Source: a bacterium (lineage in GTDB: Bacteria > Patescibacteriota > Minisyncoccia > Phycocordibacterales > UBA12079). From it: 64,000 nucleotides of DNA. Under the pieces are notes generated by a model that had not been told where the DNA came from, searched no databases, and saw only the letters and a program-made list of their open reading frames with translations. Of this stretch, positions 7,271 to 53,734 are shown piece by piece (position 1 is the first letter of the stretch; each line of letters opens with the position of its first letter). The translations under genes and the position numbers were made by a program. The stretch is taken from positions 2,626 to 66,625 of the forward strand of contig DAOWHH010000001.1 of NCBI GenBank assembly GCA_030641525.1, in the 5' to 3' direction.

Positions 7271-7372
7271 CCAAATTTAGCATACTTCTTCCTCAACCTC
7301 TGAAAAAATATTTTCAATGTATTGTAAACACACCTCAAATATTTTTTGACGAAGATGAAAAAGAAAACTTTT
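7271..7372 (+). repeat. copy 1 (degenerate) of an about 110-nt structured intergenic repeat
   Basis: CCAAATTTAGCATACTTCTTCCTCAACCTCTGAAAAAATATTTTCA aligns base for base with the 5' halves of the copies at 40790 and 50719. Confidence 0.7.
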
Positions 7373-8793: not shown

Positions 8794-9582
8794 ATGTATA
8801 AATACTTTGATACACATGCTCATTTAGATATGTCTCAATTTGATGAGGATAGAGATATTTTGATTAAGAAATTACAGGATGAAAATATTGGAGTAATTAC
8901 AATTGGGGTGGATAAAAAATCATCTCTTGAAGCAATTAAGTTGTCAGAAAAATATGACAATGTTTTTGCTAGTGTTGGTTTTCATCCTATAGATGCAAAA
9001 GAAGAATTTAAGTGGGAGTATTTTTCCGAGATTATTCAAAATCCAAAAATTGTAGCCATAGGGGAGTGTGGTTTAGAATTTTTCAGAATAGAGAAAGATT
9101 CTGAAGAAGAAAAGAAACGACAAATTAAATTATTTGAATCACAAATTGATTTTGCAGTAAAATATGATAAACCTTTAATGATTCATTGCAGAAACGCTCA
9201 CAAGGATGTTTTAGCTATTTTAAAGGTAAAAAAACAAAAATATGGTGACAAATTGAGAGGAATTATCCATTTTTTCTCTGGAAATATACAGGAAGCTCAA
9301 GAATATATAGATTTGGGATTTTCTTTTTCTTTTGGTGGAGTAATTACCTTTACTTCTGATTATGACGAGGTTGTGAAATTTATTCCTATTGATAGGATTT
9401 TATCAGAAACAGACGCTCCTTTTGTGGCCCCAGAGCCATATAGAGGAAAGAGAAATGAGCCGATTTATATAAAAGAGGTGGTTAAAAAGATAGCCGAACT
9501 AAAAGAAGAAGATTTGGCTAAAACTAAAGACATTCTAGTACAAAATGCAGTAAATATGTTTGCATTAGGTGTTAAATTATGA
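8794..9582 (+). CDS. tatD: TatD family metal-dependent hydrolase
   Basis: 262 aa. FDTHAHLD at the N-terminus, then GECGLEF, IHCR and ETDAPF motifs. Confidence 0.9.
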   Translation: MYKYFDTHAHLDMSQFDEDRDILIKKLQDENIGVITIGVDKKSSLEAIKLSEKYDNVFASVGFHPIDAKEEFKWEYFSEIIQNPKIVAIGECGLEFFRIEKDSEEEKKRQIKLFESQIDFAVKYDKPLMIHCRNAHKDVLAILKVKKQKYGDKLRGIIHFFSGNIQEAQEYIDLGFSFSFGGVITFTSDYDEVVKFIPIDRILSETDAPFVAPEPYRGKRNEPIYIKEVVKKIAELKEEDLAKTKDILVQNAVNMFALGVKL

Positions 9583-9595
9583 TAGTCTTTCGTTT

Positions 9596-10135
9596 ATGAA
9601 AAAAGAGGAAAATATATCTAAAAATGATATTTATGAAATTGGCTATCTTTTAGTGTCAAATATTTTAGAAGACGAGATACTTAAAGAAGTAGCTAATCTT
9701 AAATCTATATTAGAAAAACAAAAATCTACTTTTATGTCAGGAGATGAGCCTAAATTAATAAATCTTGCTTATCCTATGTCAAAAATGATTGATGGTGAGA
9801 AACAGATATTTGATAAAGCTTATTTTGCTTGGATTAAATTCAGAATTGATGTTGAGAAACTAGATGTTTTTAAAAAGGAACTTGATAAGTATCAGAATAT
9901 TTTAAGGTATCTTTTAATAAAAACTCTTGAAAAAGATACTATGATGTCAGATTCTAAAAAAAGTGTTTTTGTACAAAAAGATAAAAGTATAACTCAGGAA
10001 GGAAAAGTTATTGAGCCATTAAAGATTGTTGAAAAGGATTCTCATCAAGAAAATGAGGAAGTAAAAATAACAGAAAAAGAAAAAAAGGAGAAAAAGGATT
10101 TAGATGAGACAATTGATAACTTAATAATAAAATAA
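9596..10135 (+). CDS. rpsF: 30S ribosomal protein S6 with a long K/E-rich C-terminal extension
   Basis: First gene of the conserved rpsF-ssb-rpsR order. IYEIGYLL...LINLAYPM resembles the S6 core. The ATG at 9596 is preferred over the GTG at 9569, which overlaps tatD. Confidence 0.7.
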   Translation: MKKEENISKNDIYEIGYLLVSNILEDEILKEVANLKSILEKQKSTFMSGDEPKLINLAYPMSKMIDGEKQIFDKAYFAWIKFRIDVEKLDVFKKELDKYQNILRYLLIKTLEKDTMMSDSKKSVFVQKDKSITQEGKVIEPLKIVEKDSHQENEEVKITEKEKKEKKDLDETIDNLIIK

Positions 10136-10163: not shown

Positions 10164-10604
10164 ATGTATCTAAATAAGGTTATTTTAATAGGAAATTTAA
10201 CACGAGATCCAGAATTAAAGGCTTTGCCGTCTGGTAATCAAGTAGTTAATTTTAGTATAGCTACAAATAGTGTATGGAGAGATAAGGAAGGTAATAAGAA
10301 AGAGGCTGTGGAATTTCATAATATTGTATCTTTTGGTAAACAAGCCGAAAATATAGCTCAATATATGAAAAAAGGAAGTAGTCTTTTAGTTGAAGGTAGA
10401 TTACAAACACAAAGCTGGGAAGCTGATGGTATAAAGAAATATAGAACTGAAATAGTAGCTGATAAGGTGCAATTTGGTCCTAAGAGGGACGGAGGAGCAT
10501 CTAATAATTATGACAATCAGGATAAAGGTGAAAATAATGCTCCAAAACCTGATACAGTTGATTATCCGCAAGAAGAAATTAATCCAGATGATATACCGTT
10601 CTAA
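10164..10604 (+). CDS. ssb: single-stranded DNA-binding protein
   Basis: 146 aa. MYLNKVILIGNLTRDPELK OB-fold start and an acidic C-terminal tip DDIPF. Confidence 0.93.
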   Translation: MYLNKVILIGNLTRDPELKALPSGNQVVNFSIATNSVWRDKEGNKKEAVEFHNIVSFGKQAENIAQYMKKGSSLLVEGRLQTQSWEADGIKKYRTEIVADKVQFGPKRDGGASNNYDNQDKGENNAPKPDTVDYPQEEINPDDIPF

Positions 10605-10714
10605 TTTTCTGAAGGAAATTAAAACGAGTTAAAAGTTCGTAAAGTTGAAAGTTAAAAGTCAAAAATTTTCAAAGCAAATTTTTATACCTAATACTTAATA
10701 TATAATACTTATTC

Positions 10715-10915
10715 ATGAAACAATGCATATTCTCACAAAATAATATAAGTCAGATTGATTATAAAGATTTAGACGCAATCAGGAAATTTATAAATCCTCA
10801 CGGTAGGATTTTATCTAGAAAAAGAACTGCTTTATGTGCTAAACATCAAAGACAATTAGCCACTGCTATAAAAAGAGCAAGATTTTTAGGTCTTTTGCCT
10901 TATACTGAAAAATAA
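10715..10915 (+). CDS. rpsR: 30S ribosomal protein S18
   Basis: 66 aa with IDYKDLDAIRKFINPHGRILSRKRTALCAKHQRQLATAIKRARFLGLLPY. Confidence 0.93.
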   Translation: MKQCIFSQNNISQIDYKDLDAIRKFINPHGRILSRKRTALCAKHQRQLATAIKRARFLGLLPYTEK

Positions 10916-10955
10916 AAACAATTTATAGTTAAAAGTTTATAGTAAAAGAAAAGAG

Positions 10956-10980
10956 CGACCGCAAAGCGGTCGTTTTTTTT
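10956..10980 (+). terminator. intrinsic terminator after rpsR
   Basis: CGACCGC-AAA-GCGGTCG stem-loop followed by T8. Confidence 0.85.
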
Positions 10981-11058
10981 ACTTTTAATTATAATTAGTG
11001 ATTATATCTTTCCTCCAAGTATCTAGATTATTTAAATATAATATGATACATTGTATCA

Positions 11059-11898
11059 ATGGAAGATAATGCATATTTAATTTTTATCGATAAAGTTCCT
11101 AAAATAGGTATTAACACCCTATCTCTGAAAGATGTTGAGGAGAAAATCGCAGAAAATAAAGCAAAAAATCTTTTCTTGATAATTGAATCTTATGGTGGTA
11201 GTCCATTTGATGCAATTGCTATAATGAACATATTACATTTGCGGTTTCCTAAAATTTCAACGATTATTCCATGTTTTGCGAAAAGTGCTGCCACACTTAT
11301 GTCTTTAGGTACTGATGAGATATATATGCAAGAAAAATCAGCGTTAGGACCTCTTGATCTACCTATAGAACACCACAAAGACGGATCAACGATAAGTTCT
11401 TTAGATATTCAAAATACAATAACATCAATGGCTGGATTGGTAGGATCAATTGCAGAGGATAGATTTAAATTATTTACTGAAAACACAACCATATCAAAAA
11501 AGGAAGCAATGAAACTTTCTTTAGATAATGCAACAGATTTTGTAAAGCCTATTATCCAGCAAGTAGATCCATATCATCTTCAAAAGGCTGAACGGGAACT
11601 GAGAATTGGATCATGGTATGCAATGGATATGTTATTAAAGAGAATGATGAAAGGACAGTATATAAAGGCACGAAAGACTGCTAATACTCTAGTAAAATCT
11701 TTCCCTGCTCATGAATATTCTATTTTCCCAGAAGTTGCAGAAAATATGCTCGGTCTTAAAATTAAGAAAATATCTGATTTACAACTTTGGGAAAGTAATT
11801 TAAAAAAGATATATAATAATGTGTGCAAAAAACAGTATCATATTGAATATGGTATAATAAAGAAAAATGTTATTAAAAATACAAAACAAAAAAAATAG
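11059..11898 (+). CDS. SDH-family Clp-fold serine proteinase
   Basis: 279 aa. IIESYGGSPFDAIAIMNILHLRFPKISTIIPCFAKSAATLMSLGTDEIYMQEKSALGPLD matches the ClpP/SppA-fold serine dehydrogenase proteinase pattern. The gene stands alone between two terminators. Confidence 0.65.
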   Translation: MEDNAYLIFIDKVPKIGINTLSLKDVEEKIAENKAKNLFLIIESYGGSPFDAIAIMNILHLRFPKISTIIPCFAKSAATLMSLGTDEIYMQEKSALGPLDLPIEHHKDGSTISSLDIQNTITSMAGLVGSIAEDRFKLFTENTTISKKEAMKLSLDNATDFVKPIIQQVDPYHLQKAERELRIGSWYAMDMLLKRMMKGQYIKARKTANTLVKSFPAHEYSIFPEVAENMLGLKIKKISDLQLWESNLKKIYNNVCKKQYHIEYGIIKKNVIKNTKQKK

Positions 11899-12093
11899 TC
11901 AAACAGATGAATTTAATACTATTGGTGATAGTGGTAAGAAAATCGGTGAAAATTGGATTAGTAAGGCAATAGAAAGGGATGCAGAACGTATAATAGCCAG
12001 TAAAAAGAAATCAAAATCCACAGATAATCCTGTTGAAAAGAAGTGATAAATTAATAAAATAAAGTATAAATTGTGATAAATTTATAGAAAAAA

Positions 12094-12124
12094 TAAAAAA
12101 AGGTCGCTTTGCGACCTTTTTTCT
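12094..12124. terminator. bidirectional intrinsic terminator (protease gene / recA)
   Basis: A-run, AGGTCGC-TTT-GCGACCT, T-run. It lies between convergent genes. Confidence 0.8.
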
Positions 12125-12156
12125 TTTACTTTCAACTTTATGAACTTTAAAAACTT

Positions 12157-13239
12157 TTAACTACCTTTCATCTCTTCTCTAATCTTTTTCAAAATTTCAT
12201 TTGATAATTTTTTATCTTCTTTAAGAAATTTTCGTGAGGCATCATAACCTCTACCTAATTTAGTATCATCGTAACTATAAGAAGATCCTGCTTTGGAAAT
12301 TATTCCATATATTTCTCCCAGGGCAATTAGCTCTCCTTCTTTTGATATTCCTTCGTTATAAATCAAATCAAATTCAGTCATCTTGAATGGGGGAGCAACT
12401 TTATTCTTCACTACCTTTACTCTTACTCGTCCCCCCACAACATCAGTTCCTTTTTTAATTTGAGCTATTCTTCTAATATCTAATCTGACAGAAGTGTAAA
12501 ATTTTAAAGCTCTTCCCCCAGGAGTAGTTTCAGGACTACCAAACATCACACCAATTTTCATTCTTATTTGATTGATAAAAATCACAACAGTATTACTCTT
12601 ACCAACAATAGCTGTTAATTTACGAAGGGCTTGAGACATTAATCTAGCTTGTCTCCCTACATGATGAGCTCCCATATCTCCTTCAATTTCAGCTTTAGGG
12701 GTAAGAGCGGCTACTGAATCAATTACTATGACATCTACTTTTCCAGACCTTACTAAAGATTCGGTTATTTCTAATGATTCTTCTCCCGTGTTTGGTTGAG
12801 AAACTAGTAAATCATTTATATTTACACCTAATTTTTTAGAATAATCTGGATCTAAGGCATGTTCAGCATCAACAAAGGCACAGATTCCATTTCCTTTTTG
12901 AGCTTGAGCAATTACATGTAATGCCAAAGTTGTTTTTCCTGAAGATTCAGGTCCGAATATCTCTATAATTCTACCTCTTGGAAGTCCTCCAATACCAAGA
13001 GCATCATCAAGTCCTATCGATCCTGTTGGTATTGCTTCTATCCCAACTTTAGGAGCATCTCCTAGACGAATAATTGAATCTTCTCCGAATTTAGTTCTTA
13101 TTTGGGATAATGTATTTGTTACATCATCCTCTCTTGTATCTTTTTTGGGTTTTTCAATTTTTTTAACCTCTATCTTTTTTTCACTAGTACCTATTGTTTT
13201 TTTAATAGGAGTTTTCTTATCTGCTTTTTTCTTTGGCAT
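12157..13239 (-). CDS. recA: recombinase RecA
   Basis: 360 aa. [16 protein letters not shown] Walker A and the canonical RecA core, with a K-rich N-terminal extension. Confidence 0.97.
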
Positions 13240-28155: not shown

Positions 28156-28701
28156 ATGGAAGAAAAAAAAGATGAAGTAGTTGAAGAAGCTACTGAAGTA
28201 AAGGAAGAAACAGTAGAAGCTCCTGTAGAAGAAGCTAAAACTGAAGATCCTAAACCTGAGGTCGGACAAGAAAAAAAGAAAGAAGTAGGAGAGGATACTA
28301 ACCCTGCAGACGGGCAAGATGTAGAAGTTCCTAAAAAATTTAAAACATTGGTAGAAGGAATTGAATCTATGTCTGTGCTTGATTTAAATGAATTAGTTAA
28401 ATTACTTGAAAAGAAATTTGGTGTATCAGCTGCAGCTGTTGCCGTAGCAGGTGGACCAATTGCTAGTGCTGATGACGGAGCAGAAGAAAAAAGTGCTTTT
28501 GATGTAGAACTTACATCTGTTGGAGATCAAAAAATAGCAGTTATTAAAGCTGTTAAAGGTGCTTTAGGATTAGGTCTGAAAGAGGCTAAAGATTTGGTTG
28601 ATGCAGCTCCTACGGTTTTGAAAAAGGATATGAAGAAAGAAGAAGCTGAATCTTTGAAGAAAGATATAGAAGAAGCTGGAGGAAAGGTTGAATTGAAATA
28701 A
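28156..28701 (+). CDS. rplL: 50S ribosomal protein L7/L12 with an about 58-aa acidic N-terminal extension
   Basis: 181 aa. The canonical part starts at [30 protein letters not shown] and ends [27 protein letters not shown]...AGGKVELK. Confidence 0.9.
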
Positions 28702-28702
28702 A

Positions 28703-28743
28703 TATTACCATAATCATTTTTACTAATCCTCACTCGAAATTAT
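28703..28743 (+). repeat. 3' half of the about 90-nt intergenic element (copy A); left arm of a 32-bp perfect inverted repeat
   Basis: AATCATTTTTACTAATCCTCACTCGAAATTAT (28712-28743) is the exact reverse complement of 30027-30058. Confidence 0.9.
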
Positions 28744-28747
28744 CATT

Positions 28748-28776
28748 AAAAAACAGCTATCGGATAGCTGTTTTTT
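28748..28776 (+). terminator. intrinsic terminator after rplL
   Basis: AAAAAACAGCTATC-G-GATAGCTGTTTTTT, embedded in a 47-bp palindrome (28739-28785). Confidence 0.8.
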
Positions 28777-28805
28777 AATGATAATTTTATTATTTATTAA
28801 TCCTC

Positions 28806-28833
28806 TTGACATATTATGTTATCTATATATAAT
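28806..28833 (+). promoter_or_regulatory. consensus sigma70 promoter
   Basis: TTGACA (28806-28811), 16-nt spacer, TATAAT (28828-28833). Confidence 0.6.
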
Positions 28834-28906
28834 TTAAATAATTATATAACGATAATCAAAATAATTTTTAGTTATCTAAATTCAAATAGTTCTTTGGGAG
28901 GAGAAT

Positions 28907-29296
28907 ATGAACAATAATAGGCAGATTACTAAAATACTGGGTATTTTAGTAATAGTGGTAATTGTAATGAGTGGTTGTTCAAGAGGTTTTCCATCTTTTT
29001 CAAAAGATGAAAAAATATGGTTAGGAGCTTGTATGTCCGGTCAAATAGTTGATTTATACACAACAGATCAAGGTCTTAAAAGAGGATTTGGAGAAGCTAA
29101 TCAAGTGACTTTTAGTGAAAAACCAAGCATAGAAGAATTATTTTTTAAAAAATTATTCATATATGCAGGGATGTACTTTGTATCTTGGTTGACAGAAGAT
29201 CCTGACGATGATGAAGATATTTCTATTGTGTGTGCAACATTAGGTTTTGGAGCTGCTGGATATAATCAGCATCTTATCGACACAAATTCACAATAA
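28907..29296 (+). CDS. lipoprotein, function unknown
   Basis: 129 aa. Signal peptide with lipobox VMSGC. Strong SD (GGGAGGAG, 28896-28903) that is atypical for this window. Confidence 0.55.
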   Translation: MNNNRQITKILGILVIVVIVMSGCSRGFPSFSKDEKIWLGACMSGQIVDLYTTDQGLKRGFGEANQVTFSEKPSIEELFFKKLFIYAGMYFVSWLTEDPDDDEDISIVCATLGFGAAGYNQHLIDTNSQ

Positions 29297-29412
29297 CCGT
29301 TCAATAACCCTCTTTTTTGAGGGTTATTTTTATAAAATACTTCTTAGTATTATCAACTATATGAAGTAAATTGTTATTGTAGATATTTTAAATTTTTGAT
29401 AATATTATTTAT

Positions 29413-30030
29413 ATGGAAACTCTAACTAAATTATTTGGGACCTCAGCTAAAGTAAAAATAATGAGATTATTTTTATCTAATGAAGATCAGGTTTTTAATA
29501 ATGCTGATATTTCAAAAAAAACAAAGGTTTCTTTAGCTAATGTTAGAAAGGAATTAAATATTTTGGAAAAAATTAATCTTGTTAAAAGAAAGGTTTTCTA
29601 CAAAGAAATAGAAAAGAAAAAAGCTGGAAAAATAATTATCGAAAAGAAGAAAAATAATGGTTGGGTATTAGATAAGAGTTTTTCTTTATTAAGTCCTCTT
29701 AAAAACTTACTTATTAAAAGTAGTCCTTTGGAGTCCAAGGAAATAATATCTCGACTCAAAAAAGGAGGAAATCTTAAATTGGTGATAATATCAGGAGTAT
29801 TTGTACAAGAAAAGGATAGTAGGGTAGATATTTTAATAGTAGGGGACAATTTGGATAATTCTTATTTAGACAGGGCTATTCATACTATTGAATCTGAAAT
29901 AGGACAGGAATTAATATATTCTGTTCTAGAAACAGCTGATTTTATATACAGATTAGGAGTTTACGATAAATTATTAAGAGATATTTTAGATTTTTCTCAT
30001 AAAAAACTAATTAATAAATTGAATTTATAA
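29413..30030 (+). CDS. winged-helix transcriptional regulator with an uncharacterised C-terminal domain
   Basis: 205 aa. The N-terminal KVKIMRLFLSNEDQVFNNADISKKTKVSLANVRKELNILEKINLVKRK is an ArsR/MarR-like wHTH pattern. Confidence 0.55.
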   Translation: METLTKLFGTSAKVKIMRLFLSNEDQVFNNADISKKTKVSLANVRKELNILEKINLVKRKVFYKEIEKKKAGKIIIEKKKNNGWVLDKSFSLLSPLKNLLIKSSPLESKEIISRLKKGGNLKLVIISGVFVQEKDSRVDILIVGDNLDNSYLDRAIHTIESEIGQELIYSVLETADFIYRLGVYDKLLRDILDFSHKKLINKLNL

Positions 30031-30116
30031 TTTCGAGTGAGGATTAGTAAAAATGATTACGCTAGTATTTATTTTTACTATATCCGAGCGATGGAATTAT
30101 ATGCTTGCTTCATATA
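30027..30116 (-). repeat. full copy B of the about 90-nt intergenic element (inverted orientation)
   Basis: The reverse complement reads TATATGAAGCAAGCATATAATTCCATCGCTCGGATATAGTAAAAAT...ATTTTTACTAATCCTCACTCGAAATTAT. It overlaps the stop codon of the upstream gene. Confidence 0.9.
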
Positions 30117-30337
30117 GTTTATTTGCCTTAAGTGGGGTTAAAATTAGGATAAGTGGTTTATCCACAATTATTGTATTATATATCTCTTATATAATGATAT
30201 TATATGAATATATAGTAATAAAGGTCGTCAAATCATAAAACCAATGTTGTTTTTGGTGGTTAAGTTAAACTATCCGATCAAGTTTTTGGTATATGATAAT
30301 AATTAAAAAATAATTATTAATTATAAATTTAGAAAAT

Positions 30338-31021
30338 ATGATATTACAAACTTGGGGTGAAGTGTTATCACAATCTTTTTTGAATCTTTGGATGGTGATT
30401 GTGAGTTTTGTTCCTAACCTAATTGTGGCAATAGTAATTTTTATTGCTGGTTGGGTAGCTGGAGTTTTGTTTGGAAGAGTAATTGAACGAATCATTCGTT
30501 CACTTGGTGTTGATAAGGTATTACGAAGTGCAGGTGTGGAAAAGACATTTAATAAAGCAGGCTTTCGTTTGGATACAGGAGCTTTCATTGGTGCTTTAAT
30601 TAAATGGTTTATCATAGTTGTTTTCTTAATAGCATCTTTTGATGTTTTGGGACTTGATCAAGTAAATCTATTCTTACAACAAGTTGTTCTGCTATACCTT
30701 CCAAGAGTAATAGTTTCGGCTATAATTCTTTTAGTTGCAGCAGTTATTGCTGAAGTAACAGAAAATCTTGTTAGAGGATCAGCCAAAGCAGCAGGTGTTA
30801 AACAAGCTCGTTTATTAGGAGTTATTTCTCATTGGGCAATCCTAATTTTTGCTGGTTTAATGGCTCTTTATCAAATAGGAGTAGCAGCAACATTTGTACA
30901 AACATTATTTACAGGATTTGTTGTAGCTTTATCTTTGGCGATTGGACTTTCGTTTGGTTTAGGTGGAAAGAATGCAGCAGCGGATGTTATAGATGAATTT
31001 AGAAAAAAAATAGGTAAATAA
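30338..31021 (+). CDS. membrane protein with conserved TM-helix repeats (CmpX/MscS-associated type)
   Basis: 227 aa. LPNLIVAIVIFIAGWVAGVLFGRVIERIIRSLGVDKVL occurs as a repeated TM-helix motif. Confidence 0.55.
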   Translation: MILQTWGEVLSQSFLNLWMVIVSFVPNLIVAIVIFIAGWVAGVLFGRVIERIIRSLGVDKVLRSAGVEKTFNKAGFRLDTGAFIGALIKWFIIVVFLIASFDVLGLDQVNLFLQQVVLLYLPRVIVSAIILLVAAVIAEVTENLVRGSAKAAGVKQARLLGVISHWAILIFAGLMALYQIGVAATFVQTLFTGFVVALSLAIGLSFGLGGKNAAADVIDEFRKKIGK

Positions 31022-31039
31022 TCTAGTAAATTAAGGATG

Positions 31040-31112
31040 AATCACCCAACATCACTTTTGAGGAATAGAAATTTCTATTTCCCAAAAGTGATGTTGGGTG
31101 ATTTTTGGTTTT
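31040..31112 (+). terminator. long-stem terminator
   Basis: AATCACCCAACATCACTTTTG (31040-31060) pairs with CAAAAGTGATGTTGGGTGATT (31083-31103), followed by TTTGGTTTTT. Confidence 0.7.
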
Positions 31113-31147
31113 TATGTATTAATATATTTTTTGAAATCATATAATCA

Positions 31148-31178
31148 TTGACTTAATATTTAATTTTGGTAGTATATA
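31148..31178 (+). promoter_or_regulatory. putative promoter of the S19-led ribosomal operon
   Basis: TTGACT (31148-31153) followed 18-19 nt later by GTATATA. Confidence 0.35.
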
Positions 31179-31221
31179 ACAAGCTCCGATAGCTAAAGGA
31201 GTATTTATTTTTTATATTATT

Positions 31222-31551
31222 ATGACAAGATCACTTAAAAAAGGTCCTTATGTGGACGAAAAACTTTTGAAAAAGATAGAAGGTAAAAAACCAAAAGATG
31301 CTGGTGTTGTTAAGACTTGGGCAAGAGCTAGTCAAATATCTCCAGAAATGGTTGGTTGGACCTTTGGTGTTCACAATGGTAAAAACTTTATTGATGTTTT
31401 TGTAACGGAAGATATGGTAGGGCATCGTTTAGGTGAATTTTCTTCTACAAAGAAATTTATTAAACATGGAGGTAGAATGCAAAAAGAATTGGATCAAAAG
31501 AAAAAAGAAGCTGAAATAACAGCAGCTAAAGCAGCTAAAGCAGCAGCATAA
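31222..31551 (+). CDS. rpsS: 30S ribosomal protein S19 (K/A-rich C-terminal extension)
   Basis: [19 protein letters not shown] and [13 protein letters not shown]. Confidence 0.93.
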
Positions 31552-31562
31552 TATTTTATTAT

Positions 31563-31997
31563 ATGGAAATAAAAGCAAGTATTAAAAATTATAGACAATC
31601 TCCAAGAAAGCTTCGTTTGATTGCTAATTTAATTCGTGGCAAAAAAGTTGATAGGGCGATTTCTGAACTTAATCATTTAAACAAAAAAGCATCAATTATT
31701 GTAAAAAAATTATTAGAATCAGCGTTAGCCAATGCTAAACATAATAATAATTTGAAAAAGGAAGATTTGTTTTTAAAAAAGATAGTGGTTGATAGCGGTC
31801 CATCTTTAAAAAGATTCAGGCCTGGAGCAAGAGGAGTGGCTTATCCTTATAAAAAAAGAACAAGTAATATTTCTGTTGTTTTAGGAGAAGATGTTAAAGA
31901 ACCTGAAAGAATTAAACCATCTGCCTCCACTAAAGGTTATGATGTGACAAAGAAAGATGAGAAAATTAAAACCATTAAAAAAGTAATTAAAAAATAA
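31563..31997 (+). CDS. rplV: 50S ribosomal protein L22
   Basis: YRQSPRKLRLIANLIRGKKVDRAISEL, in the conserved operon position. Confidence 0.9.
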   Translation: MEIKASIKNYRQSPRKLRLIANLIRGKKVDRAISELNHLNKKASIIVKKLLESALANAKHNNNLKKEDLFLKKIVVDSGPSLKRFRPGARGVAYPYKKRTSNISVVLGEDVKEPERIKPSASTKGYDVTKKDEKIKTIKKVIKK

Positions 31998-32000
31998 TTT

Positions 32001-32657
32001 ATGACACATACTGTTCACCCTTATGCACATAGAATAGGAATACTGAGAGATTGGAAATCTCGTTGGTTTGGTTCGCGTAAAAAATATTCTGAATATTTAA
32101 AAGCAGATGTTTTAATTAGAGAATATTTAGAAAAAAAGCTCAGAAAATTTTATATTTCTTCTATTGAAACAGAGAGAAGTGAAAAATTATTTAGAATTAT
32201 TATTAAAACTTCTAGAGCAGGTATGTTAATTGGAAGAAGTGGTGAAGGGGTACAGAAATTAAAGGACGATATAATAGCCTTTATGGATAAAAATAATTTA
32301 ACTAAGTCAAAAGAATTGAAAGTTGATATTGAAGAGATAAGATACCCAGAAACAGATGCCGCTGTGGTAGGAATGATGGTAGCAGAAGCTCTTGAAAAGA
32401 GAATGCCTTTTAGAAGAGTATTAAAAATGACTGTTGAAAAAGTAGCTGCTAACAGAGATGTAAAAGGTGTAAAGATTTCAATATCAGGTCGTTTAGGAGG
32501 AGCTGAAATGGCAAGAAGAGAAGAATTAAAGAAAGGAGGAATTCCACTTCAAACTTTTAGAGCTGATATTGATTTTGCAAAAGAAAAAGCATATATGTCT
32601 TATGGAGTTATAGGTATTAAAGTGTGGATTTATAAAGGAGAGATATTCAAGAAGTAA
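32001..32657 (+). CDS. rpsC: 30S ribosomal protein S3
   Basis: HTVHPYAHRIGILRDWKSRWF and a KH domain. Confidence 0.93.
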   Translation: MTHTVHPYAHRIGILRDWKSRWFGSRKKYSEYLKADVLIREYLEKKLRKFYISSIETERSEKLFRIIIKTSRAGMLIGRSGEGVQKLKDDIIAFMDKNNLTKSKELKVDIEEIRYPETDAAVVGMMVAEALEKRMPFRRVLKMTVEKVAANRDVKGVKISISGRLGGAEMARREELKKGGIPLQTFRADIDFAKEKAYMSYGVIGIKVWIYKGEIFKK

Positions 32658-32680
32658 AAAGTTTGTAAAGTGAAAAAATT

Positions 32681-33112
32681 ATGTTATTTCCCAAAAAAGC
32701 AAAACATAGAAAATGGCAAACAGGCCGAAAAAACCCAAAGAAAGTTGGGGTTGCTTCTCGTGGAAAAACAATAGCTTTTGGGTCTTTTGGTTTGAAATCA
32801 TTAACAGGAGCAAGAATTAAATCTAATCAAATTGAAGCTGCACGAAGAGCAGCTAAAAGGTATTTAGGAAAGGTAGGTACAGTTTATATCAGAATTTTTC
32901 CTGATAGACCTTTTACTTCTAAGCCAGCAGAGGTTAAAATGGGTAAAGGAAAAGGGGCACCGGAGGGGTATTGTGTACCTGTAAAACCTGGGTCAATGTT
33001 ATTTGAAGTGGATGGTGTGGATGAAAAAACAGCTAGAGAAGCTTTGAGAAAAGCTGGAACAAAATTACCTGTTAAGACAAAGATAGTTGATAGGGAAAAA
33101 ATAACTATTTAA
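32681..33112 (+). CDS. rplP: 50S ribosomal protein L16
   Basis: MLFPKKAKHRKWQTGR and the mid-protein AEVKMGKGKGAPEGY. Confidence 0.93.
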   Translation: MLFPKKAKHRKWQTGRKNPKKVGVASRGKTIAFGSFGLKSLTGARIKSNQIEAARRAAKRYLGKVGTVYIRIFPDRPFTSKPAEVKMGKGKGAPEGYCVPVKPGSMLFEVDGVDEKTAREALRKAGTKLPVKTKIVDREKITI

Positions 33113-33116
33113 TATT

Positions 33117-33317
33117 ATGGTGAAAAAAATTGATTTAAAAAAGAAAACAGAAAAAGATTTACATAAATCTTTATTAGAAAAAAGAGCTGAATTAAGAGAA
33201 TTTAGGTTTGCTTTATCTGGTAGTAAAATAAAGAATATTAAGAAAGCTAGAGCCTTAAGGAGAATGATTGCTCGTATATTAACAGAATTAAATTTTAGAG
33301 TAAGAAATACATCATAG
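33117..33317 (+). CDS. rpmC: 50S ribosomal protein L29
   Basis: 66 aa. ELREFRFALSGSKIKNIKKARALRRMIARILT. Confidence 0.88.
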   Translation: MVKKIDLKKKTEKDLHKSLLEKRAELREFRFALSGSKIKNIKKARALRRMIARILTELNFRVRNTS

Positions 33318-33410
33318 AATTATGTGAAGCAAGCATATAATTCCATCGCTCGGACATAGTAAAAATAAATATTTAAAAATAATCATTTTTACTAGTCCTC
33401 ACTCGAAATT
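33318..33410 (+). repeat. copy C of the about 90-nt intergenic element; fills the whole L29-S17 spacer
   Basis: ATGTGAAGCAAGCATATAATTCCATCGCTCGGACATAGTAAAAAT...ATTTTTACTAGTCCTCACTCGAAATT, ending at the rpsQ ATG. Confidence 0.9.
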
Positions 33411-33686
33411 ATGAAATTATTTAAAAACAAAAAAGAAAATCAGAAGATTGATGATAAAAAAGGAAAAACTCTAAAAGGAGAGGTTGTTTCTAATAAAATG
33501 GAAAAAACACTTGTAGTTTTGGTAAAAAGATTTGTTAAACATCCTAAATATGGTAAATATAGAACAATCACAAAAAGATATAAAGCTCATTATGATGAGG
33601 GAGAGTATGAGATTGGAGATAAAGTAGAGATAAAGGAATGTAATCCTATTTCAAAAGATAAAAAATTTAAGATAGTTAAGAGTTAA
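33411..33686 (+). CDS. rpsQ: 30S ribosomal protein S17
   Basis: LKGEVVSNKMEKTLVVLVKRFVKHPKYGKY. Confidence 0.9.
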   Translation: MKLFKNKKENQKIDDKKGKTLKGEVVSNKMEKTLVVLVKRFVKHPKYGKYRTITKRYKAHYDEGEYEIGDKVEIKECNPISKDKKFKIVKS

Positions 33687-33752
33687 AGGTTTTTAGTCTT
33701 TAGTAAAGAAAATTGCAAAGTGATTTTCTATCTATAAACTAATATTAATATT

Positions 33753-34124
33753 ATGATTCAACCACAAACAATAGTTAAAATAACGGACAATTCAGGAGCT
33801 AAGACTGGTAGAGTTTTTAAAGTTTTAGGTTCTTCCAAAAAGAGATATGCTCGAATAGGAGATTTGGTTGTTTTGTCTGTTCAAACAGCTGAACCTAGAA
33901 AACAGGTTAAGAAGAAGGATGTTTTAAGAGCTGTGGTGGTGAGAACTAAACAAAAACAAAGAAGAAAAGATGGATCATATATTAGTTTTGACGATAACGC
34001 AGTTGTTATAGTTGAAAAAGGAAAGAAAGAACCAATAGCAGGAAGAATTTTTGGACCTATTCCTAGAGAAATTGCTGATTTAGGTTATCAAAAAGTTATT
34101 TCTTTAGCTCCTGAGGTTATATAA
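33753..34124 (+). CDS. rplN: 50S ribosomal protein L14
   Basis: MIQPQTIVKITDNSGAK. Confidence 0.95.
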   Translation: MIQPQTIVKITDNSGAKTGRVFKVLGSSKKRYARIGDLVVLSVQTAEPRKQVKKKDVLRAVVVRTKQKQRRKDGSYISFDDNAVVIVEKGKKEPIAGRIFGPIPREIADLGYQKVISLAPEVI

Positions 34125-34131
34125 GAAAATC

Positions 34132-34419
34132 ATGAAAATCAAAAAAAACGACAATGTAAAAATAATTGCGGGGAAAGATAAAGGTAAAACTGGGAAAATT
34201 TTGCGTGCTTTTCCTAAATTAGATAAAGTTTTAGTTGAGGGTATTAATAAGAAGAAAAAGAACCAGAAATCTACACGAAAAGGTCAAAAAGGACAGATTA
34301 TTGAAAAAGAATTTCCAATTCATGTTTCTAATGTGGCTTTGGCAGGTTCTAAAACCAAAAAGATTACTAAGGTTGGAGAAAAGGTAGCGAAAGTCAAGGA
34401 AATTAAAACTACTAAATAA
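34132..34419 (+). CDS. rplX: 50S ribosomal protein L24
   Basis: MKIKKNDNVKIIAGKDKGKTGKI (KOW motif). Confidence 0.9.
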   Translation: MKIKKNDNVKIIAGKDKGKTGKILRAFPKLDKVLVEGINKKKKNQKSTRKGQKGQIIEKEFPIHVSNVALAGSKTKKITKVGEKVAKVKEIKTTK

Positions 34420-34424
34420 ATTAC

Positions 34425-34976
34425 ATGAATATTAAAGAGAAACAAAAGAATACATTTGATGTTTTAAAAACTGATTTTGGTTACAAAAACAAAATGCAAG
34501 CTCCTAAATTAGAAAAGGTTGTTTTGAGTGTGGGAGTTGGTTCTTCATCTGTTGATAAGAAAAGAATTGAATTAATAGAAGATAGATTAACGAAAATAGC
34601 AGGACAAAAACCAGCTCATAGAAAAGCGCGAAAATCTATTGCAGCTTTTAAATTAAGAGAGGGGGAAAAGGTAGGTTATCAAGTGACTTTAAGAGGTGAT
34701 AGGATGTTTGGTTTTTTGGATAAGTTTATAGATATAGCTTTACCTCGAACAAAAGATTTCAGAGGGTTAACTATTAAATCAATTGATGAAATGGGGAATG
34801 CTACTCTAGGAATTAAGGAGCATATTATTTTCCCAGAAACATCGGATGAGGAATTAAGAGATGTATTCGGTATGTCTATATCAATTGTGACATCAGCTAA
34901 TGATAAAAAAGAAGCAGAAGCTTTTTTACGACATCTGGGATTTCCTTTTAAAAAGGAAGAAGAAGCTAAAAAATAA
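34425..34976 (+). CDS. rplE: 50S ribosomal protein L5
   Basis: YKNKMQAPKLEKVVLSVGVG and RGDRMFGFLDKFI. Confidence 0.93.
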   Translation: MNIKEKQKNTFDVLKTDFGYKNKMQAPKLEKVVLSVGVGSSSVDKKRIELIEDRLTKIAGQKPAHRKARKSIAAFKLREGEKVGYQVTLRGDRMFGFLDKFIDIALPRTKDFRGLTIKSIDEMGNATLGIKEHIIFPETSDEELRDVFGMSISIVTSANDKKEAEAFLRHLGFPFKKEEEAKK

Positions 34977-35002
34977 ATTTTAAATAAAGTTAATATAAAT
35001 AG

Positions 35003-35030
35003 AAAACAGCTGTAAAATAGCTGTTTTTTT
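35003..35030 (+). terminator. terminator-like hairpin inside the spc operon (L5-S14 spacer)
   Basis: AAAACAGCT-GTAAAAT-AGCTGTTTTTTT. Same design as the rplL terminator. Confidence 0.55.
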
Positions 35031-35163
35031 ATTTGTATTCTGAGGTTTAATTTTGAAATAAAAAAAAACGAACAAAAATCAACATTTAATTGACTTTAAT
35101 AGGTGTTTTTGATAGGATTAACGAAGTTATCCGCTATAAGGCGGTATTAATTTATAGATAAAA

Positions 35164-35349
35164 ATGGCAAAAAAATCAGTTATAGCAAGAGCAAATAAAG
35201 AACCTAAATTTTCTTCAAGAATAGTGAGAAGATGTTTTAGATGTGGTAGAAAAAGGGGTTATATGCGTCAATTCGATTTATGTAGAATATGTTTTAGAGA
35301 ATTAGCAAATGAAGGAAAAATTCCGGGTATTAAAAAATCATCTTGGTAG
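35164..35349 (+). CDS. rpsZ: 30S ribosomal protein S14, zinc-binding type Z
   Basis: 61 aa. [23 protein letters not shown] contains two CxxC pairs. Confidence 0.92.
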
Positions 35350-35350
35350 A

Positions 35351-35455
35351 TAATTAGTTTATGGCTGATTAGCTGGCTAGCTTCTTAGGAGAAAAATCGC
35401 AGAGCGATTTTTCCTCTAATAAGCTAATTAGCTAGCAAGCTAAAAAGCTAAAATT
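35351..35455. repeat. about 105-nt imperfect palindrome in the S14-S8 spacer
   Basis: The arms are built from TTAGCT words (GATTAGCTGGCTAGCTTCTTAGGAG / CCTCTAATAAGCTAATTAGCTAGC) around the core hairpin GAAAAATCGC-AGA-GCGATTTTTC. Similar arms occur at 56481-56520. Confidence 0.7.
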
Positions 35456-35463
35456 AAATAATT

Positions 35464-35859
35464 ATGTCTAGAGATATAGTATCAGAATTAATAATTGGCA
35501 TTAAAAATGCAGGTATGGCAGGTAATGAAACTGTTCGTTTTCCTTATTCTGAATTAAAAGCTACTATTGCTGATATTTTAAAAAAAGAGGGATATATAGA
35601 TTCTTTTTCAAAAATTGGTAAAACTCCTAAAAGAAAATTGGAAATAGGAATAGCGTATAAAGATAAAAATACTCCTAAAATTAGAGATATTGTAAGAGTT
35701 TCAAAATTATCTAAAAGAATTTATTTTGGTAATAAAGATATCAAGAGAGTTAAGGGTGGTTATGGAAAATTAATCGTATCTACATCCAAAGGAGTTATGA
35801 CGGGAGATAAAGCTAGAAAGGAAGGAATTGGGGGTGAGCCGTTATTTAAAGTTTGGTAA
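35464..35859 (+). CDS. rpsH: 30S ribosomal protein S8
   Basis: DIVSELIIGIKNAGMAGNETVRFPYSELK and GGEPLFKVW. Confidence 0.93.
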   Translation: MSRDIVSELIIGIKNAGMAGNETVRFPYSELKATIADILKKEGYIDSFSKIGKTPKRKLEIGIAYKDKNTPKIRDIVRVSKLSKRIYFGNKDIKRVKGGYGKLIVSTSKGVMTGDKARKEGIGGEPLFKVW

Positions 35860-35948
35860 TATTATATGAAGTAAGCATATAATTACATCGTTCGGGTTAT
35901 ATAAAAATAATATTAAAATAATCTTTTTATAAATCCTCACTTGAAATT
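35860..35948 (+). repeat. copy D (diverged) of the about 90-nt intergenic element; fills the whole S8-L6 spacer
   Basis: TATATGAAGTAAGCATATAATTACATCGTTCGGGTTATATAAAAAT...CTTTTTATAAATCCTCACTTGAAATT, ending at the rplF ATG. Confidence 0.85.
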
Positions 35949-36482
35949 ATGAGTAGAATAGGACAACAACAATTGGAAATTCCAGCAAATACCGAAATTA
36001 ATTTGGTTGATAATTTTGTGGTAGTAAAAGGTCCCTTAGGGGAATTAAAAAGAGAATTAAGACCAGAAATAAAAGTTGAGATAAAAGATTCAATTGTTTC
36101 GGTTAACCCTACAAACAAATCTCCTTTTGCAAAAGCTCTTTGGGGAACTTTTGCATCACATATTTTAAATATGATAAAAGGAGTGAATACTCCTTACGAA
36201 AAGAAATTAATTCTTGAAGGTGTAGGATTTAAATCAGAGATTAAGGGTGATAAGTTGGTTTTAAGTTTAGGATTTTCTCATTTAGTTGAGATAAATATTC
36301 CTAAGGATCTGAAAGTGACAGCTGAAAAGAATAATATTTCAGTATCAGGAATTGATAAAGAATTAGTTGGTCAATTTGCTGCTAAAATAAGAGCCAAGAA
36401 AAAAGCTGAACCATATAAAGGTAAAGGTTTTAGGTATCATGATGAGGTAGTACGCAGAAAGCAAGGTAAGAAGAATGTTTAG
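35949..36482 (+). CDS. rplF: 50S ribosomal protein L6
   Basis: MSRIGQQQLEIPANTEINL and PYKGKGFRY. Confidence 0.93.
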   Translation: MSRIGQQQLEIPANTEINLVDNFVVVKGPLGELKRELRPEIKVEIKDSIVSVNPTNKSPFAKALWGTFASHILNMIKGVNTPYEKKLILEGVGFKSEIKGDKLVLSLGFSHLVEINIPKDLKVTAEKNNISVSGIDKELVGQFAAKIRAKKKAEPYKGKGFRYHDEVVRRKQGKKNV

Positions 36483-39332: not shown

Positions 39333-39413
39333 GTCGAAAGTCTATAAAGTTCATAAAGTCGAAAGTCAAAGATTTGCTTCGCAAATTTTTCTTTGTTAAT
39401 TTATAATAATAGT

Positions 39414-40789: not shown

Positions 40790-40913
40790 AAATAAACCCA
40801 AACTTGGCACATTTCTTCGTCAGCTTCGGAAAAATTATTTTCACCTTACCATCAGTAAGGCTCAAAAAATTTTTCCCCGCTTTCTCGAACTGTACTCAAG
40901 TTTGGGTTTATTT
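40790..40913 (+). repeat. copy 2 of the about 110-nt structured intergenic repeat
   Basis: 17-bp perfect terminal inverted repeat AAATAAACCCAAACTTG / CAAGTTTGGGTTTATTT. Conserved core GGAAAAATTATTTTCACC, then hairpin CCTTAC-CATCA-GTAAGG, then CTCAAAAAATTTTTCC. Confidence 0.85.
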
Positions 40914-50705: not shown

Positions 50706-50718
50706 AGTTTTATAACTT

Positions 50719-50827
50719 CCAAAATCGGCATATTTCTTTATCAATTTCAGGAAAATTATTTTCACCGTATGCTCGATACGGCTCAAAAAATTTTCCTGAA
50801 ATTGATAAAGAAATATACTCAATTTTG
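50719..50827 (+). repeat. copy 3 of the about 110-nt structured intergenic repeat
   Basis: 27-bp perfect stem (50729-50756 with 50790-50816) around the conserved core GGAAAATTATTTTCACC, then hairpin CCGTAT-GCTCG-ATACGG, then CTCAAAAAATTTTCC. Confidence 0.9.
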
Positions 50828-50925
50828 AAAATTCTAAATGATTAGTCTTTAATTTTTGATAACTATCTAAAAAATATAGCAAATTTAGAGAAAATTAGAA
50901 AGGTTAAAATAAAATATCTAAATTT

Positions 50926-53616: not shown

Positions 53617-53667
53617 TTTTGGTTAAAATTATTTTAAATTATAAATTATAAATTTTAGATTTTAAAT

Positions 53668-53706
53668 TAAAGACGGGCGAGGTAAAGTCTCGCCCGTCTT
53701 TCTTTT
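53668..53706 (+). terminator. intrinsic terminator
   Basis: AGACGGGCGAG-GTAAAGT-CTCGCCCGTCT followed by a T-rich run. Confidence 0.88.
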
Positions 53707-53734
53707 AAATTACAAACTATACAATTATTAATTC

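Follow-up and report, generated by a model that had tools for sequence, protein, structure and literature searches.

A family of small hairpin-forming, apparently mobile DNA elements often joined to gene starts in Patescibacteria

Four copies of a repeat element in and near a ribosomal protein operon

The DNA considered here is a stretch of 64,000 nucleotides (nt) of contig DAOWHH010000001.1, assigned to a member of the Patescibacteria (assembly GCA_030641525.1), which has a G+C content of 30% and is hereafter referred to as the window. In its ribosomal protein operon, the spacer between the genes for L29 and S17 and the spacer between those for S8 and L6 are each filled completely by a copy of one repeat element. 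An earlier note on this DNA had reported four copies of this element, termed A to D. All four were recovered by nhmmer at or near the places reported, and the covariance model agreed with this for copies B, C and D. The copies, and the two hairpins of copy C, are as follows:

33318-33412, + strand: copy C, a full element that fills the whole L29-S17 spacer (nhmmer E=2e-25; covariance model 81 bits)
33318-33342, + strand: hairpin P1 of copy C, composed of AATTATGTG, the loop AAGCAAG and CATATAATT, and present in the minimum-free-energy fold
33352-33398, + strand: hairpin P2 of copy C (GGAC...GTCC), a long stem with one bulged base
35860-35950, + strand: copy D, a diverged full element that fills the whole S8-L6 spacer (nhmmer E=1e-19; covariance model 77 bits)
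30027-30121, - strand: copy B, a full element in inverted orientation (nhmmer E=6e-27; covariance model 87.5 bits)
28687-28743, + strand: copy A, a 3' half copy that comprises the P2 loop, the P2 3' arm and the tail (nhmmer E=2e-10)

The coordinates given earlier are thus broadly right, except that copy B reaches to about 30119-30121 and that copy A can be detected from about 28687 onwards. No further copy was found in the 64-kb window at E<0.3 with nhmmer and a three-copy profile. Likewise, the covariance model, run on the window with its filters switched off, returned only B, C and D (E-values of 5e-16 to 9e-14), the next best match having an E-value of 0.08.

The gene boundaries defined by Pfam matches (L29, 33117-33317; S17, 33411-33686; S8, 35464-35859; L6, 35949-36482) leave no room in the two spacers for anything besides the element. 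Copy C abuts the L29 stop codon TAG and copy D abuts the S8 stop codon TAA. Both copies terminate in ...GAAATTAT|G, and the resulting ATG is the start codon of the next gene: the last two bases of copy C are the AT of the S17 ATG (33411-33413), and the last AT of copy D is that of the L6 ATG (35949-35951). The L6 N-terminus, MSRIGQQQ, agrees with that of relatives (MSRIGKQQ), and the N-terminus of S19 also matches its counterparts in relatives, which indicates that the ATGs of L6 and S19 are authentic starts. The Pfam boundaries and the L6 N-terminus therefore bear out the claim that both copies occupy entire spacers and end within the ATG of the following gene.

Inside P1 of copy C lies a -10-like TATAAT (33336-33341), and P2 is enclosed between a conserved linker, CCATCGCTC (33343-33351), and a conserved tail, TCACTCGAAATTAT (33399-33412). 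The corresponding TATAAT and P2 of copy D are located at 35878-35883 and 35894-35936, respectively. Copy B shares 94% identity with copy C, and its terminal ATAATT includes the TAA stop codon (30028-30030) of an open reading frame (ORF) of 205 amino acids (aa) at 29413-30030; in this copy the stronger hairpin, with a predicted free energy of -29.6 kcal/mol, falls on the + (mRNA) strand. Copy A is wedged between the stop codon of the L7/L12 gene (28699-28701) and an intrinsic terminator at 28749-28777. The contig of the same organism in the NCBI assembly is broken within copy C, as can be understood from the tendency of assemblers to break at repeats.

A widespread family with a covarying hairpin

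A 21-mer of the element with 19 fixed positions was searched against species-representative genomes, and a split pattern was searched against metagenomes. The first search retrieved 19 loci, from 11 Patescibacteria metagenome-assembled genomes plus one enterobacterial chance match. The second search retrieved 59 metagenome stretches from lakes, groundwater and sediments, of which at least 15 derive from a single 594-kb contig, FLOH01000029.1, whose L6 protein is 84% identical to that of the window. The wider genome search that the earlier note had proposed thus brought the family to 93 copies from Patescibacteria genomes and metagenomes, 76 of them unique. Fetched loci are designated below by L numbers.

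At the gathering threshold, Rfam yielded no family for the element in the window, and a relaxed search at E≤10 over positions 28600-36100 yielded none either, in agreement with the view that the element is not a known ribosomal leader. Literature searches on repeats or miniature inverted-repeat transposable elements (MITEs) in Patescibacteria or Parcubacteria returned nothing relevant. The element therefore apparently represents a previously undescribed family of small, hairpin-forming and apparently mobile DNA elements, which is found in many Patescibacteria (Paceibacterota/'Pacebacteria') and which as a rule lies shortly before a gene, often providing the AT of its ATG. A phage or plasmid origin was rejected, as no match was obtained in viral contigs, a phage collection and a plasmid collection. 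The enterobacterial match, located upstream of lapA in Kosakonia (L009 6883-6903), has neither the P2 hairpin nor the tail and is diverged in E. coli, and it was not counted as a copy. This lapA promoter region has 33 of 35 bases in common with the 5' part of the L012 variant (GGTTGCATATAATTYCATCGCTCGGA), which we judged to be a chance or convergent match to a -10 region.

The element is 75-95 nt long and consists, from 5' to 3', of the hairpin P1, a conserved linker, the long hairpin P2 and a conserved tail. P1 is formed by AATTATATG, a loop and CATATAATT, and it includes the TATAAT; the linker reads TTCCATCGYTC and the tail TCRCTYGAAATTAT(G). The two termini of the element, ATATAATTCCATCGYTCGGA and TCCTCRCTYGAAATTATAT, are inverse-complementary only in part, through seven A/T pairs and scattered others, and the asymmetry between these terminal arms is itself conserved. 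P2 corresponds to the 10-bp stem described earlier; such a stem does exist, but it extends beyond 10 bp, as it reaches from GGA to TCC and includes a single bulged base. Its arms are wholly different between subfamilies, yet pairing is kept in each of them (TGTGAAAAT/ATTTTCACA, GTAGAAAT/ATTTCTAC, ATAAAAAC/GTTTTTAT, GTGGAAGC/GCTTCCGC and CATGAGC/GCTCACG).

Covariation was scored on a MAFFT alignment of 43 variants, with controls in which the 3' partner was slid by one to three columns and with 500 shuffles. Two-sided changes were observed in all seven scored pairs of P2, and 97% of the cells were paired, compared to 41-51% in the slid controls; none of the 500 shuffles reached the observed covariation. 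Within the window, the two compensatory changes reported for copy D relative to copy C were found again, namely G-C to A-T in alignment columns 44/82 and A-T to T-A in columns 43/85. A pair that joins the linker to the tail, Y34-R93, also covaries (UA in 17, CG in 17 and CA in 7 variants), as does the loop-adjacent pair of P1 (ATGC/GCAT, ATGG/CCAT, ATGA/TCAT and ATAC/GTAT). The linker and the tail are near-invariant across many genomes and habitats.

The predicted fold of the sense RNA consists of P1 and P2, with the tail largely free. The reverse strand, which is complementary to the downstream gene, nevertheless folds better in 62 of 62 unique copies, with a mean of -21.9 versus -14.3 kcal/mol and a median difference of 7.5 kcal/mol when RNA parameters are used; the advantage holds in 60 of 62 copies with DNA parameters. 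Differences between the strands are also seen at individual positions: P2 contains 32 G-U pairs on the reverse strand versus 8 on the sense strand, an invariant 2x2 internal loop that is UC/UC in the sense strand becomes a tandem G-A motif in the reverse strand, and A-C or C-A mismatches of the sense strand at pairs 30-96 and 34-93 (21 cells) can form wobble pairs in the reverse strand. So large a strand bias is not seen in the further palindromic repeat families of these genomes.

At several loci, two to three units are arranged head to tail, with a period of 87 nt in the long forms and 73 nt in the short forms, and adjoining units have the hexamer AATTAT in common. On account of these arrays, self-cleaving ribozymes (hammerhead, twister, pistol, hatchet) were considered; they were rejected because Rfam gave no match at E≤10 and because inspection revealed no CUGAUGA...GAAA core. 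A coding or in-frame insertion, as known for the Rickettsia RPE, was rejected as well, since the 87-nt unit has in-frame stop codons. A mini-ORF that begins with ATGAAG has 2, 4, 11 or 14 codons depending on the copy, and there is thus no conserved peptide.

The gene context was assessed for 71 independent copies, none of them array-internal. In 28 of these, the end of the copy provides the ATG of a real ORF, and these ORFs are unrelated housekeeping genes; like C and D, about ten copies take up all of the space between two genes that run in the same direction. The start of a same-strand ORF of at least 80 aa lies within 50 nt of the 3' end in 32 copies, whereas a divergent ORF starts within 50 nt of the 5' end in only 3. 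The other 43 copies are not fused to a start codon, and at least 11 of these have an ORF start within 50 nt. About 5 of the 71 copies are located within 50 nt of the end of a convergent gene. Genes downstream of the element include those for S19, S17, L6, L20, HU, RpoC, RecA, LigA, GatC, the hibernation factor HPF, RNR beta, RNase III, rubrerythrin, PEP synthase, an antitoxin and membrane proteins. An orientation tied to the replication strand was considered and rejected, as the local GC skew of the non-fused copies was positive for 14 and negative for 11. Orientation thus tracks the downstream gene rather than the local GC skew. This speaks against a strict dependence on the replication strand such as that of IS200/IS605 (IS, insertion sequence).

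Insertion next to start codons and the explanations considered

Comparison with relatives revealed empty sites at both spacers. The L29-S17 site has no copy in L010, L082, L083 and L085, nor, by nhmmer only, in L021; the spacers measure 5-48 nt. At the S8-L6 site no copy is present in four relatives (L082-L085), where the spacer is 10 nt long or filled by other repeats. In L083, which stems from the same metagenome and has an L6 protein 83% identical to that of the window, the S8-L6 junction reads TAA-ATAAAAAATT-ATG, and the S8-L6 and L29-S17 spacers are 10 nt each; in L010 the L29-S17 spacer consists of 5 nt (TAA-TTACT-ATG). The covariance model detected no copy anywhere in the ribosomal protein operons of L082-L085, and nhmmer found no second copy in L021, for which the fetched stretch covers the operon from the 205-aa gene to L14. 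The reverse situation is met at the start of the S19 gene, where a copy is present in L010 and the site is empty in the window (flanks TTTTTTTGAATTAT[87 nt]GACAAGG versus TTTTTTATATTATTATGACAAG), while the upstream promoter and leader hairpin are the same in both. The inserted unit is about 87 nt long (73 nt in short forms), extends from ATGAAGC to GAAATTAT and lies immediately 3' of TTAT. Its 3' end is constantly AATTAT and its 5' flank varies (GTTTAT, TATTAT, CTTTAT, AAATAT and others), so that a true target duplication is not apparent.

Judged from these alignments, C and D are lineage-specific insertions. The earlier note had regarded a lack of further copies and of covariation, or the absence of the element from the same spacers in close relatives, as arguments against its view of the element. 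Both further copies and covariation were found, but the same spacers do lack the element in relatives, and by the note's own reasoning this weakens a function tied to S17 or L6. A regulator specific for ribosomal proteins was rejected for the same reason and because the downstream genes are unrelated. Among the possibilities raised at the time, the evidence favours a MITE-like insertion, as the same family precedes unrelated genes and the spacers in relatives contain no copy of it. A role as a translation-initiation module or as a protein-binding site would be putative.

On balance, we consider it probable that the element is a non-autonomous mobile element, similar to MITEs or to repetitive extragenic palindromic (REP) sequences, that has adapted to gene starts and that behaves as a genome parasite or passenger, possibly co-opted as a leader, and not as a ribosomal protein-specific regulator. 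Mobility would then account for its distribution, and any leader function is putative, with effects that are presumably near-neutral or mildly modulatory, for instance those of an mRNA-stabilising or processing hairpin. In the mechanism that we propose, the small palindrome would insert 3' of a TTAT in the target. Its 3' end resembles the start context (A/T)TTAT|G that is native to these genomes, and the insertion would therefore rebuild both the start codon and an A/U-rich, mostly unpaired initiation region; indeed, many genes of the window have (A/T)TTATG before their coding sequence. Insertions at start codons would survive purifying selection even in ribosomal protein spacers of 4-10 nt, and insertions elsewhere would be lost. 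Because the start codon is rebuilt on insertion, surviving copies would gather, in sense orientation, at gene starts, and arrays would form because each unit recreates a target. Copies C and D would have been inserted in this lineage, and within the polycistronic mRNA they would fold as P1 plus P2, leaving the AUG region largely free; the effect on expression, that of one mRNA hairpin, would probably be modest. Insertion after TTAT would in this way explain the start-codon fusion, the sense bias, the variety of genes, the empty orthologous sites and the assembly break.

Several observations weigh against this explanation. The covariation of the hairpins implies selection on a folded single strand, which the earlier note had advocated and which is well supported by the 43 variants, with the caveat that template-switch 'correction' of quasi-palindromes can mimic compensatory changes. 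The conservation of the linker and tail appears stronger than would be expected of a neutral passenger, although the search patterns themselves account for part of the apparent sequence conservation. The preference for the reverse strand in 62 of 62 copies, as calculated from folding models, would be predicted neither by a pure selfish-DNA model nor by a pure sense-mRNA model. It possibly reflects that the reverse strand is the recognised form, as single-stranded DNA (ssDNA) or RNA, or that there is selection for an open sense mRNA at the AUG. Furthermore, occupied and empty sites share only microhomology, with no clear target-site duplication. Lastly, no Y1/HUH protein was found near the copies by regular expressions (KYR, HxHxx) over 1205 ORFs, the fetched loci contained no multicopy ORF family, and neither a transposase nor a recombinase turned up in these loci (about 0.6 Mb) and in the scanned ORFs of the window. 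An IS200/IS605 TnpA, or another multicopy transposase, near the copies was likewise rejected as none was found in the fetched loci.

Whether the element brings a promoter has to be viewed in relation to the transcription signals of the window. The Pfam-identified genes around the copies encode L10, L7/L12, S19, L22, S3, L16, L29, S17, L14, L24, L5, S14, S8, L6, L18 and S5, and the following signals were recognised:

28749-28777: terminator
28806: canonical promoter, after the terminator that follows copy A
31148: canonical promoter, before S19
35001-35029: terminator
35090: canonical promoter, before S14 and after the terminator at 35001-35029

The clear promoters of the window conform to TTGAC(A/T)-16/17-TAnnAT, two of them with a TG. 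The promoter scan of the window did not flag C and D, which have no -35 box. The simplest reading is that both are transcribed from the S19 and S14 promoters within the operon mRNA. The earlier proposal to this effect is compatible with the promoters at 31148 and 35090, the terminator at 35001-35029 and the missing -35 boxes. The S19 leader is conserved (window 31148-31221; L010 2467-2560, - strand): a TG-extended promoter, TTGACT-16-TAGTAT, is followed by a hairpin, CTCCGATA...GGAG, and by a U-run just before the ATG, both in the genome with the element and in that without it. This leader could be an attenuator or an autoregulatory leader.

Three further explanations were considered. One of them, which is possible but unlikely, is that the element is, or has been co-opted as, a portable expression cassette, that is, a mobile promoter plus leader. 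The TATAAT would be the -10 box, with transcription predicted to start about 7 nt downstream at the G of CATCG; the RNA would begin with a 5'-terminal stem-loop (G33-C94, Y34-R93 and then P2) that protects it from 5'-dependent decay, and the single-stranded tail UYGAAAUUAUG would be an A/U-rich initiation region independent of a Shine-Dalgarno sequence. This would fit the finding that the covarying helix begins exactly at the predicted +1 and that TATAAT (or TATATT/GATAAT) persists in variants lacking the P1 5' arm (L024, L033, L049, L052, L054, L065 and L072), and these two features suggest that a promoter or leader role remains alive for some copies. In array-internal units, moreover, TTGAAA-N16-TATAAT arises where the tail of the preceding unit adjoins the TATAAT. 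The genes downstream are typically well expressed (HU, rpoC, recA, ribosomal proteins, HPF, RNR), and the mean predicted unpaired probability from position -6 to the AUG rises from 0.44 for read-through RNA to 0.66 for an RNA that starts at G33. However, solitary copies, including C and D, have neither a -35 box nor a TG extension, whereas the evident promoters of the window have TTGAC(A/T) at 16-17 nt; a -35 match of at least five of six bases occurs in 8 of 65 solitary copies (12%), which is barely above the 5.5% background. In addition, the S19 promoter and leader are conserved whether or not the element is present, orthologous genes in relatives work without it, and a promoter would leave the covariation of P1 unexplained. 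Rather improbable in our view is a cis-regulatory RNA switch or operator, in which CAUAUAAUU would pair either with the 5' arm AAUUAUAUG (P1, with the AUG free) or with the tail AAAUUAU(G) in a helix P0 that would enclose the entire element and hide the AUG; the choice would be made by a ribosome, a protein or temperature. The RNAalifold consensus does pair TATAATT with AAATTAT(G/A) around P2, removal of the P1 5' arm lowers the predicted accessibility of the AUG from 0.44 to 0.35, and the linker and tail are nearly invariant. In a variant of this idea, the tail would pair with the non-canonical 3' tail of the 16S rRNA of these organisms: in L007 this tail, AUUAUUUCAA, is complementary to UUGAAAUUAU at nine of ten positions, and CCUCC is absent from the 16S 3' ends of two element-bearing genomes. 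Against such a switch, P0 never varies and hence provides no covariation signal either way, it is A/U-only, weak and easily formed by chance in a genome with 30% G+C, and the differences in accessibility are small. Moreover, the 43 non-fused copies lack a directly following gene start, copy B stands inverted behind a stop codon, copy A is only half an element, the orthologous sites in relatives are empty, and no GAAAUU motif is common to other window genes before their ATG.

The explanation that takes the strand asymmetry most literally is that the near-perfect hairpin on the strand complementary to the downstream gene is the selected form, and to this we likewise give little credence. The hairpin would act as folded ssDNA for a strand-specific recombinase or HUH enzyme, as do attC bottom strands, the ends of IS200/IS605 and REP sequences with RAYT, or else as a 3' hairpin of an RNA behind a gene, as at copy B. 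The copies at gene starts would then be a by-product of the target site. Besides the folding energies, the G-U pairs, the tandem G-A loop and the wobble pairs described above, the conserved bulged base of P2, the insertion 3' of TTAT without duplication and the position of copy B directly on a stop codon speak for it. On the other side, no HUH/Y1 or integrase gene was found nearby in the fetched loci and the scanned window ORFs, the positions of the hairpins relative to the element ends are unlike IS200/IS605 geometry, orientation follows the downstream gene, few copies lie near the ends of convergent genes, and selection for an open sense mRNA at the AUG would explain the asymmetry equally well. 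A last proposal, which is speculative and for which the chances seem slim, combines mobility with translation: the element would be a mobile leader that docks at start codons and is adapted to Patescibacteria without a canonical anti-Shine-Dalgarno sequence. It would insert at TTAT|G and introduce a full intercistronic module, with a hairpin as insulator, a landing site rich in A/U and the rebuilt AUG; the invariant tail UUGAAAUUAU might pair with the 16S tail of L007, and together with other palindromic spacer families it would recast coupled ribosomal protein operons as separately initiated cistrons. The 16S 3' ends of two element-bearing genomes, GGATTATTTCAAATTG and GGATCAATTCCAATTGG, indeed contain no CCUCC, and it is to the first of these that the tail is complementary at nine of ten positions; however, this complementarity may be due to chance in A/T-rich sequence, and the duplex would overlap the AUG. 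These 16S 3' ends are located at L007 2296-2350 (GGAUUAUUUCAAAUUG) and L012 2868-2920 (GGAUCAAUUCCAAUUGG), and their lack of the anti-Shine-Dalgarno CCUCC fits the absence of Shine-Dalgarno motifs before the genes of the window.

A non-autonomous mobile element adapted to gene starts thus remains the explanation that we prefer. Patescibacteria, the candidate phyla radiation, have tiny and compact genomes whose non-coding DNA, promoters and translation starts are scarcely known. A family that is conserved across many of these genomes, covaries strongly and is absent from Rfam suggests that reduced genomes, too, carry active small repeats, and that such repeats can split the most conserved operon of bacteria without killing it, since the start codon is rebuilt by the repeat. 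In practical terms, the family also causes breaks in the assembly of genomes from metagenomes, as exemplified by the contig end within copy C. Should the element indeed provide promoter or initiation signals, it would offer a direct handle on expression in organisms whose 16S rRNA has no CCUCC.

Other repeats in these genomes and comparison with known systems

Other palindromic repeats were noticed in the same operon. A repeat that we call family 3 fills the S14-S8 spacer of the window (35350-35463) and ends at the S8 ATG; its arms, TTAGCT... and ...AGCTAA, enclose the hairpin AAAAATCGC-AGA-GCGATTTTT, with a predicted fold of -43 kcal/mol, and related copies occupy ribosomal protein spacers of L082 and L084. 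Repeats or remnants of another kind, family 2, were seen in the window at 39333-39392 (SecY-Adk), 33687-33752 (S17-L14), 32658-32680 (S3-L16), 10610-10656 and 12091-12177. Family 2 has the arms GAAAGTYNATAAAGT and ACTTTWAACTTT around a terminator-like hairpin, AAAAATTTGC-TTCG-GCAAATTTTT, and in L082 it fills enlarged spacers of about 100-155 nt each at S3-L16, S17-L14, L24-L5 and S8-L6. The S8-L6 junction holds three other kinds of palindromic repeat in L082, L084 and L085. From S19 to SecY, spacers measure 5-25 nt in L083 versus 100-330 nt at most junctions in L082 and L085. To judge from these sequences, the operon is being broken up by repeat insertions in some lineages only, and the presence of other palindromic repeats in the same spacers marks colonisation by hairpin repeats as a general trait of the clade and not as a property of S17 or L6.

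Further repeats lie elsewhere in the window. Directly after the gene for a mechanosensitive channel, a 32-nt inverted repeat without a spacer (31040-31103; AATCACCCAACATCACTTTTGAGGAATAGAAA and its complement) shows 94% complementarity between its arms, and in Rfam it yields only weak, chance-level matches to miRNA models. A repeat of about 76 nt, CCAAAnTTGGCAyATTTCTT..., is present at 7271-7346, 40798-40873 and 50717-50829, where it is palindromic; one copy lies just after the map gene. The motif AAATTTTAGATTTTAAATTA recurs at 53637-53733 of the window, at L007 2787-2830 and downstream of the element in L020, L022 and L025. Often it follows directly on the element and precedes a hairpin rich in G+C; it may represent another modular repeat.

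In L029, L031, L053, L058 and L061, four of which derive from FLOH01000029.1, the element occurs in its short form as part of a longer composite repeat of about 170 nt. Between its beginning, TTATAAACGACGTAGAGCGAG..., and its end, ATTATAAGACGAAGTGCTTCTAT, this repeat has another hairpin, GTAATCTAAAA/TTTTAGATTAC, which looks like an inverted copy of the element that has diverged; the reverse complement of ATTATAAGACGAAGTGCTTCTAT substitutes for the P1 5' arm in L033, L052, L054, L065 and L072. The 16S 3' end of L029 (FLOH01000029.1) was not located by the usual GTCGTAACAAGG motif. In the same locus a group I intron adjoins the 16S rRNA gene (9351-9618 and 10527-12188, - strand), and the rRNA genes of L029 probably contain insertions; rRNA-gene insertions have been reported for bacteria of the candidate phyla radiation. 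An ORF of 1208 aa, similar to PEP synthase, begins 22 nt downstream of the element in L048 and L076, and an apparent intein-like insertion with a segment of the homing-endonuclease type is found in the middle of this protein.

The element resembles several known kinds of repeat, each in part. Correia elements (CREE) of Neisseria are small, non-coding, multicopy MITEs with imperfect inverted termini, whose transcripts fold into a hairpin over the whole element. They occur within operons as well as where genes adjoin, differ among related genomes and may bear promoter-like boxes. The present element is likewise small, non-coding, multicopy, hairpin-forming, polymorphic, located at gene boundaries and equipped with a promoter-like box, and with four dispersed copies in 64 kb and presence/absence polymorphism at orthologous sites it displays two features of a MITE; a third, a target-site duplication, is not seen. 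However, it has no similarity in sequence to Correia elements, shows neither a TA nor any other clear target duplication and has no known parent IS; its termini are only about 75% inverse-complementary with conserved differences between them, its 3' end is fused in register to start codons, and it forms head-to-tail arrays with a common AATTAT.

REP/BIME sequences and REPINs, which are associated with RAYT (Y1/HUH transposases), are extragenic imperfect palindromes of some tens of nt with conserved bulges, strand asymmetry and covarying stems; they occur between the genes of operons and cause no target duplication. The palindrome, the conserved bulge, the strand asymmetry, the covarying stem, the intergenic position within operons and the missing target duplication are shared by our element. 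In contrast to REP sequences, its consensus has no GTAG head and its hairpin is flanked by the conserved CATCGYTC and TCRCTYGA; no RAYT was found by regular expressions among the 1205 ORFs, the copy number is modest (4 per 64 kb here, at least 15 per 594 kb in the relative), and REP sequences are not known for a strong sense bias upstream of genes or for fusion to start codons.

A likeness to the leaders of ribosomal protein operons, such as the S8/spc and L4/S10 operators in Rfam, lies in the presence of a structured RNA immediately before a cistron of such an operon. Unlike these leaders, the element has no Rfam counterpart at E≤10, precedes unrelated genes, is absent from the orthologous spacers of relatives and shows no evident mimicry of the rRNA binding site of S8 or L4. 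Integron attC sites, imperfect palindromes with a length of 57-141 nt, combine conserved ends with a centre that varies but is paired, and they have extrahelical bases; one of their strands is active when folded, and they are situated directly between ORFs. Our element is also an imperfect palindrome with conserved ends and a variable but paired centre directly between ORFs; it differs in that it lacks R''/R' boxes (RYYYAAC/GTTRRRY) and a cassette array, that no intI gene was found and that its copies are dispersed at housekeeping genes.

The element furthermore agrees with the operational definition of 'putative mobile promoters' (Matus-Garcia et al. 2012, PMC3488235), a purely computational category of upstream sequences of 50-100 nt with at least 80% identity in front of non-homologous genes, some of which are common to several genera. 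Compared to a working promoter, its -10 box is conserved but solitary copies have no -35 box, which is present in arrays only, and promoter activity is putative. What sets the element apart from all of these systems is the combination of in-register fusion to start codons, wide conservation with covariation, and strand asymmetry.

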